From NCBI GenBank assembly GCA_000092065.1, contig CP000581.1: a stretch of 64,000 nt of DNA, one strand, 5' to 3'. The position numbers and the translations under genes are program-made. This DNA comes from Ostreococcus lucimarinus. Its lineage: Eukaryota. Under the pieces are notes generated by a model, which worked only from the letters and a program-made list of their open reading frames with translations, made no database searches and had not been told where the DNA came from. Shown here piece by piece: positions 16,021 to 16,772 of this stretch (positions within the stretch are counted from its first letter, which is position 1; every line of letters starts with the position of its first letter).

Positions 16021-16772
16021 ATGAGCGCCAAGTTCGCGTTCAAGCAGGAGCATCCCTTCGGTGCGCGTCGACGCGCGCGATCGACCGCGCGCGCGCGCGA
16101 CGCGCGCGACCGCGCGCGACCGCGCGGTGGGCACGCGCGCGACGATTTGATTCGCGACGACGACGACGCGTCGCGCGCGCGACGGCGCGCGACGCGCGAC
16201 GCGACGGCGCGCGAGGGACGACGTCGATCGTTCGCGTCGCGGGACGGCGTCGCGCGTCGCGCGCGCGACGGGACGCGCGTCGCGGACGCGGACGATGGGT
16301 CTCGACCGTTGCGAGATTTAAACGCGAGACGAGACGAGACGAGAAGAGACGAGACGACGAAGGCGCGCGGACGACGAGGGACTGACGACGCGGACACGCG
16401 CGCGACGCAGATAAACGCGCGAGCGAATCGGCGCGAATTCGAGGGAAATACAACGATCGCGTGCCGGTGATCGTGGAGCGCGCGGAGAAGAGCGACGCGC
16501 CGACGCTCGATAAGAAGAAGTATCTCGTCCCGGCGGATCTCACGGTGGGACAGTTCGTGTACGTGATTCGTAAGCGCATCAAGCTCAGCGCGGAGAAGGC
16601 GATATTCATTTTCGTGAATAACGTGTTGCCGCCGACGGCGGCGCTGATGTCGGCGGTGTACGAGGAACATAAGGACGAGGACGGGTTTCTGTACGTGACG
16701 TATTCGGGGGAGAATACGTTCGGCGGCGAACGCGCGAGCGACGAAGACGACGAGGCGAGCGTCGCGCGATGA
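16021..16772 (+). CDS. ATG8: ATG8/GABARAP ubiquitin-like autophagy protein, two exons (16021..16060, 16411..16772)
   Basis: Exon 1: [13 protein letters not shown] + 1 nt, donor GTGCGC at 16061. Acceptor ...GCAG at 16409-16410. Spliced product [118 protein letters not shown]..., which is near-identical to GABARAP/ATG8. The two exon frames differ, so an intron or a frameshift is required. Confidence 0.8.

Follow-up and report, generated by a model that had tools for sequence, protein, structure and literature searches.

The introns of ATG8, COG8 and CHMP1 in a segment of the Ostreococcus lucimarinus genome are members of a published intron class and not copies of an introner element

The three introns that interrupt ATG8, COG8 and CHMP1 in the stretch of Ostreococcus lucimarinus DNA analysed here (64,000 nucleotides, hereafter the window, which we take to be part of chromosome 1) are real, have exactly the junctions predicted from the sequence and are not copies of a mobile introner element. 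They are very probably ordinary U2-type spliceosomal introns on a normal, intron-poor O. lucimarinus chromosome, and a fourth, on the opposite strand from ATG8, is a probable further example (Table 1). The finding is one already known, the introns being ordinary representatives of a class described before. It carries little discovery weight: that class, its low density and its unusual splice signals have all been published for O. lucimarinus, and two of the three introns are present in RefSeq.

Transcript-derived contigs were obtained from the Logan assemblies of seven public sequencing runs by exact look-up of the three spliced proteins. When aligned to the window, these contigs lacked exactly 350 nt at the ATG8 intron (L014), 103 nt at the COG8 intron (L007–L010) and 155 nt at the CHMP1 intron (L011–L013), and were otherwise 99–99.9% identical to it; spliced sequence across the three boundaries, which the first-pass annotation had proposed as the check on its introns, thus bears out each of them to the nucleotide. 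At its 3′ end, L007 carries a run of at least 23 A's that is not templated, the genome reading GAAGCGCTCC at that point, and the intron-less Logan contigs therefore derive from cDNA. By contrast, the metagenome DNA contigs (L001–L006, L016, L017 and L021) retain the ATG8 intron, and the intervening sequence is found again, at 98–99.8% identity, in independent DNA contigs from several metagenomes, while gene calls made on DNA for CHMP1 and COG8 either translate through the intron or place the start after it. The first-pass annotation had allowed for frameshift sequencing errors instead of introns, and the split frames might likewise be read as pseudogenes, with no introns at all. The split open reading frames alone speak for such a reading, and it has practically no probability left, because the intervening sequence recurs in the independent DNA contigs and is excised cleanly at GT and AG from the cDNA-derived ones. 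The cDNA contigs also cross five neighbouring genes without another gap, which supports the view that most genes here are single open reading frames.

The same contigs yielded two incidental observations. L007 spans three consecutive genes on the same strand, and its run of A's places the poly(A) site of the peptidase-C1 gene (31321..33684, minus strand) at about 31190, some 130 nt past the stop codon. In addition, the window and L007–L010 show a net length difference of 27 nt within a gene of 904 codons (35576..38290, minus strand); the difference is too small for an intron and presumably reflects an indel between strains in low-complexity coding sequence.

Splicing restores the conserved N-terminal segments of the proteins, as had been proposed from the GT and AG boundaries. 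The spliced ATG8 (133 aa) and CHMP1 (208 aa) products are exactly identical to XP_001415651.1 and XP_001416003.1, respectively, both from O. lucimarinus CCE9901; in COG8, the splice rebuilds the motif LERLNKEPELL, which is present across green algae, and the 529-aa product is matched by the Pfam family Dor1.

Table 1. Positions of the exons, introns, branch-point motifs and internal repeats in the window. Distances are from the branch-point motif to the AG of the acceptor.
Feature	Position	Strand	Description
ATG8 exon 1	16021..16060	+	13 codons plus the first base of an Asp codon
ATG8 intron	16061..16410	+	350 nt, phase 1, GC 75.1%; GTGCGCG...GACGCAG; GT 16061-62, AG 16409-10
ATG8 86-nt tandem repeat	16086..16290	+	Imperfect, 2.4 copies (TRF); within the ATG8 intron
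ATG8 (CGAGA) repeat	16325..16357	+	6.6 copies (TRF); within the ATG8 intron
ATG8 branch-point motif ACTGAC	16381..16386	+	Context GGACTGACGA, fits published consensus GACTGACG; 22 nt
ATG8 exon 2	16411..16772	+	Runs to stop codon
Putative exon 1, fourth-intron gene	27671..27731	-	20 codons, MPSVARRAACAAGALALGFY plus 1 nt
Probable fourth intron	27554..27670	-	117 nt, phase 1, GC 70%; GTGCGCG...GACTGACG; 25 nt; AG
COG8 exon 1	35329..35481	-	51 codons, ends ...YVAQLLSRGVENLAE
COG8 intron	35226..35328	-	103 nt, phase 0, GC 63.1%; GTGCGCG...GGCGTAG; GT 35328-27, AG 35227-26
COG8 branch-point motif ACTGAC	35256..35251	-	23 nt
COG8 exon 2	33789..35225	-	Runs to stop codon
CHMP1 exon 1	50253..50396	-	48 codons
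CHMP1 intron	50098..50252	-	155 nt, phase 0, GC 74.2%; GTGCGCG...CTCGCAG; GT 50252-51, AG 50099-98
CHMP1 branch-point motif ACTGAC	50137..50132	-	32 nt
CHMP1 exon 2	49615..50097	-	Runs to stop codon

The protein collections themselves are affected by these introns. For COG8, the sources of the full 529-aa spliced form (33789..35481, minus strand) are transcript assemblies only, and a 438-aa form, which corresponds to exon 2 alone, has an NCBI source; similarly, the O. tauri COG8 model (P0204) begins MS-RLLARG where the O. tauri genome (L025) encodes an uninterrupted ...DASYVAQLLARGVENLSE. The public COG8 models of both species therefore appear to be truncated at the N-terminus or mis-spliced. 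In related strains, the CHMP1 intron is GC-rich, stop-free and in frame, and prokaryote-style gene callers translate through it to give proteins of 254–259 aa (P0079, P0081 and P0082) with a spurious insertion of approximately 46–51 aa; read-through in other genes likewise yields xTDD extensions, which are the translated branch motif. Stop-free, GC-rich introns in combination with prokaryote-style callers thus add proteins with spurious insertions to metagenome catalogues. The practical value of the present analysis lies in annotation, through this read-through and through the first exon and intron of COG8 and the probable fourth intron, which appear to be absent from public protein models.

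All four introns begin with GTGCGCG, which agrees at six of seven positions with GTGCGTG, the atypical 5′ consensus of EST-confirmed O. lucimarinus introns outside chromosome 2 (Irimia & Roy 2008, PMC2483917), and all four contain ACTGACG at the distances from the AG given in Table 1; only 17 ACTGAC sites occur on both strands of the whole window. In the same EST-confirmed set, ACTGAC is present in 87% of the introns and GACTGACG in 66.5%, the distance from branch point to AG is approximately 20–35 nt and CGCAG is favoured at the 3′ end (PMC2483917); two of our four introns end in CGCAG. Signals of the U12 type (RTATCCTT at the 5′ end, TCCTTAAC at the branch point) are absent, these positions reading GTGCGCG and ACTGACG. 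Between branch point and AG, the pyrimidine fraction is 0.41 in ATG8 and CHMP1 and the T fraction is 0–0.06, so that the polypyrimidine tract is lacking from these two introns, as first reported for all three, but the COG8 intron does have a short CTTTCC run in this region. It seems most likely that recognition would rest on a strict 5′ site (GTGCGYG) together with an extended branch point (ACTGACG) 22–32 nt before the AG, and that the polypyrimidine tract would be largely dispensable, a pattern already described for intron-poor genomes and for O. lucimarinus.

Strict published signals, in the sense orientation and joining open frames, occur in the window only in the three known introns and at the site of the fourth, which is absent from the list of the first-pass annotation. 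This sequence would join a 20-codon exon to a 391-codon open reading frame (26340..27515). Homologues keep the sequence AYEHARTTESY, which begins directly at the predicted acceptor and has no in-frame start codon ahead of it in the DNA. The open reading frames called on DNA from three other lineages have xTDD, the translation of ACTGACGAC, just upstream of this position. Neither the spliced product nor the unspliced open reading frame has an exact match in the protein collection, and a transcript was not found; we therefore regard this intron as probable. A permissive scan (GTRNG...CTRAC...AG, joining open frames) returned 424 candidates, mostly spurious, and only the strict signals were informative. 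The other ACTGAC sites considered (44166, 17870, 8051 and 3573) are antisense to real genes or outside coding frames, and a candidate intron at 23188..23344 was rejected, as the exon 1 it requires would overlap the neighbouring gene on the opposite strand. With three confirmed introns and one probable in about 36 genes, the density is approximately 0.1 per gene, as against 0.15 introns per gene in Bathycoccus outside its outlier region (PMC3491373), and the original impression that introns are rare and that most genes are single open reading frames is upheld.

The first-pass annotation had proposed a comparison of the introns with the repetitive introner elements described in at least one Micromonas genome. 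As members of such a family, like that of Micromonas pusilla, the introns would be recent insertions of mobile elements that carry splice signals. All four introns do share GTGCGCG and ACTGACGA and contain CGCG-rich tracts, and a BLAST search of the window with the ATG8 intron gives many matches at approximately 65% identity. These matches, however, lie in many sliding registers, on both strands and in every GC-rich 5′ spacer, and therefore reflect low complexity rather than homology. In pairwise Smith–Waterman comparison, the intron interiors score no differently from dinucleotide shuffles (z from −0.4 to 1.8); among the whole introns, only the ATG8–COG8 pair reaches z = 3.0, because the splice signals are shared. 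Copy number was searched across the 64-kb window and the fetched loci and, for the ATG8 intron, also with the 24-mer CGACCGTTGCGAGATTTAAACGCG; just three metagenome contigs contain this 24-mer, and all three are collinear with the ATG8 locus. This intron is single-copy. No duplicated flank that could represent a target-site duplication was found at the introns, and the 30-nt terminal arms are no more complementary than those of shuffled sequences in three of the four; the ATG8 arms lie slightly above mononucleotide shuffles (20 of 500 reach the score), which is expected for palindromic, CGCG-rich ends. Furthermore, the lengths are heterogeneous (103, 117, 155 and 350 nt), and the positions are common to O. 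tauri, a second Ostreococcus species and M. commoda. Gozashti et al. (2022) list Micromonas species with introners in their supplement, where the first mention of Ostreococcus comes in the later list of TARA genomes and not in the earlier introner table. According to Verhelst et al. (2013, PMC3879977), the IE-C introners of M. commoda and the canonical introns of Ostreococcus have the same branch motif, which probably accounts for the sense of resemblance in the first place. With none of the features of such a family in evidence in the window and the fetched loci, whether many near-identical copies, transposon hallmarks or lineage-specific positions, the introner idea fails every test that was run and its probability is very small: there is no similarity to an introner family beyond splice signals and composition, no transposon ends, and the positions are old.

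The low-complexity tracts noted at the outset are nevertheless genuine, and in the ATG8 intron they comprise (CG)n as well as the two tandem repeats listed in Table 1, the presence of which explains why this intron is long. In environmental contigs resembling O. lucimarinus, its length is 350, 353, 345 or 264 nt, and the variants (L016, L017 and L021) differ by complete repeat units that have been gained or lost (CGA, GAGAA or one 86-nt unit). The 264-nt form (L017, environmental) lacks exactly one 86-nt unit, corresponding to 16167–16252 of the window, although a collapse in assembly could produce the same result, and the 345-nt form (L021) lacks one 5-nt unit of the CGAGA type. The copy number of these repeats would thus still vary in natural populations. 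A search of the whole window against Rfam gave no match at gathering thresholds and, for the ATG8 intron, only matches at chance level; no hosted snoRNA was detected in this way, and RNA folding prediction gave the ATG8 intron no extra stability over shuffled sequences (z = −0.79).

Comparison with related genomes indicates that the intron positions predate the species. In a second Ostreococcus species (L018 and L020), in which gene order is conserved, the ATG8 intron measures 365–369 nt and lies at the same codon and in the same phase. For CHMP1, both O. tauri (155 nt, with GTGCGTG, GACTGACG and CGCAG) and M. commoda (118 nt) have an intron at the position seen here. The COG8 intron of O. tauri (105 nt) is likewise in the same place, while a more distant lineage with 46% protein identity lacks the COG8 intron. 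The COG8 intron of O. tauri is only 47% GC and has a T-rich 3′ end, and GC-richness is therefore dispensable for intron function. Mononucleotide shuffles proved inadequate as a control for similarity between orthologous introns, as non-orthologous pairs also reach z values of approximately 5, and we therefore used the non-orthologous pairs themselves as the control. On this basis the CHMP1 introns of the three species have nothing in common beyond the splice signals, whereas the orthologous ATG8 introns score 47 in Smith–Waterman alignment against 21 for non-orthologous pairs. Two short blocks stand out: TCTCGACCGTTGCG (16299..16312), common to the ATG8 introns of the two Ostreococcus species (L018/L020), and CGCATTCTTTGAC (35286..35298, minus strand), common to the COG8 introns of O. 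lucimarinus and O. tauri (L025). These blocks hint at some constraint beyond that on neutral filler, and the ATG8 block shows no enrichment elsewhere in the window.

The GC content of the introns was initially put at 70–80%, a range into which ATG8 and CHMP1 fall but COG8 does not (Table 1). In these three introns CpG observed/expected is 1.9–2.2, and sense-strand T is only 8–9% in ATG8 and CHMP1. For a comparison with the surrounding sequence we used a provisional map of 36 genes built from open reading frames, Pfam matches and synteny, in which some start codons were guessed and one was moved; this map replaced a codon-usage classifier for coding against non-coding sequence, which was too noisy because codon bias is weak. 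Around the 36 start codons, mean GC is 0.69–0.73 from −150 to +300, falling to about 0.60 beyond +500 and in the interiors of coding sequences and to 0.47 in the first 50 nt past the stop codon. The four introns together have a GC content of 0.72 and lie at +40 to +390 from the start codons, within the GC-rich zone, each of them beginning 40–153 nt from the ATG. In base composition (A 0.18, C 0.33, G 0.39, T 0.10) they resemble the first 150 nt of the genes (A 0.17, C 0.34, G 0.37, T 0.13), and their high GC content is therefore a feature of the region and not specific to introns. One measurement counts against a purely regional explanation, namely the CGCG density of 127 per kb in the introns compared with 82–85 per kb in other 5′ sequence, and this excess is mostly due to ATG8.

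The spacers between genes follow the same polarity. Those between divergent genes (e.g. 6395..7100, 38291..38829 and 46752..46906) are 0.74–0.80 GC with 95–145 CGCG per kb, and those between convergent genes (e.g. 21741..21839, 26243..26339 and 54787..55088) are 0.40–0.51 GC. The GC- and CpG-rich, T-poor, low-complexity filler of the introns would thus have the composition shared by everything between −150 and +300 relative to the start codon, and the sequence between the splice signals would drift freely under this regional bias. The cause of the 5′ GC-rich zone might be, for example, GC-biased gene conversion or a mutation bias linked to transcription. The 5′-to-3′ GC gradient of the genes in the window may merit a genome-wide look. 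A separate GC-rich stretch of 1.6 kb (18937..20571) contains a 228-nt unit repeated 1.9 times at 19473..19902, with 86% identity and a sub-period of 114 nt; it has long open reading frames on both strands with no Pfam match, and its strand is called differently between metagenome contigs.

The positions of the four introns close to the start codon bear on a further proposal, in which the introns have been retained as 5′-proximal regulatory modules, acting through intron-mediated enhancement or as binding sites for factors, with their GC-richness as part of a promoter-proximal domain resembling a CpG island. All four introns begin within 153 nt of the ATG, their positions have been kept across species although the genome lost most of its introns, short conserved blocks occur in otherwise divergent orthologous introns, and the orthologous ATG8 introns score well above non-orthologous pairs. 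We nevertheless consider this proposal unlikely. The low GC content of the O. tauri COG8 intron shows that GC-richness is not required, the CHMP1 introns of three species are alike in their splice signals only, the rest of the window shows no enrichment of the conserved ATG8 block, and there is neither an RNA structure signal nor an Rfam match. Moreover, the surviving introns of intron-poor genomes show a 5′ bias, which fits the positions observed here, and intron loss mediated by reverse transcriptase predicts such a bias equally well. The stronger form of the proposal is a little more doubtful still: in this form, the few introns on normal Ostreococcus chromosomes would be functional parts of a GC/CpG-rich promoter-proximal domain, and the conserved blocks (TCTCGACCGTTGCG and CGCATTCTTTGAC) would be candidate intronic regulatory sites that explain the escape of these introns from loss. 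The reverse complement of TCTCGACCGTTGCG contains what we take to be a Myb-like CAACGG core, and any benefit of these introns to expression is something we would only infer.

Among known systems, the Micromonas introners (D-IE of M. pusilla CCMP1545; ABC-IE and IE-C of M. commoda RCC299; PMC4540971, PMC3879977, PMC4815162) resemble the introns described here in being spliceosomal introns of Mamiellophyceae with a GACTGAC(G) branch motif. Introner families, however, comprise hundreds to thousands of near-identical copies that vary little in length and occupy lineage-specific positions, whereas the introns of the window are dissimilar to one another, variable in length and located at positions shared between species and genera, and that of ATG8 is present once. 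The small introns of BOC1, the big outlier chromosome region of Mamiellales (PMC3491373), come from the same group of organisms and are likewise transcript-confirmed and spliceosomal, but they are 40–65 nt long, AT-rich, present at approximately 1.5 per gene and without a recognizable branch or splice consensus; those of the window are 103–350 nt long and 63–75% GC, occur at approximately 0.1 per gene and have strong consensus signals, and thus fall outside the BOC1 type. This contrasts with the close agreement with canonical O. lucimarinus introns outside chromosome 2 (PMC2483917), with which they share GT–AG boundaries, a GTGCGYG-type 5′ splice site, an extended branch point that reads (G)ACTGACG and lies 20–35 nt from the AG, a weak or absent polypyrimidine tract and a low density. 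The 5′ site, branch motif and spacing of this class are present in all four introns, and removal from the mature mRNA is seen for ATG8, COG8 and CHMP1, the fourth being placed in the class by its signals and by comparison. The 2,148 annotated O. lucimarinus introns are 37% A+T with a median length of 111 nt (PMC2483917), around which the lengths found here also lie, that of ATG8 being longer. The introns of the window differ from the canonical class only at position +6, which is C in all four and T in the published consensus.
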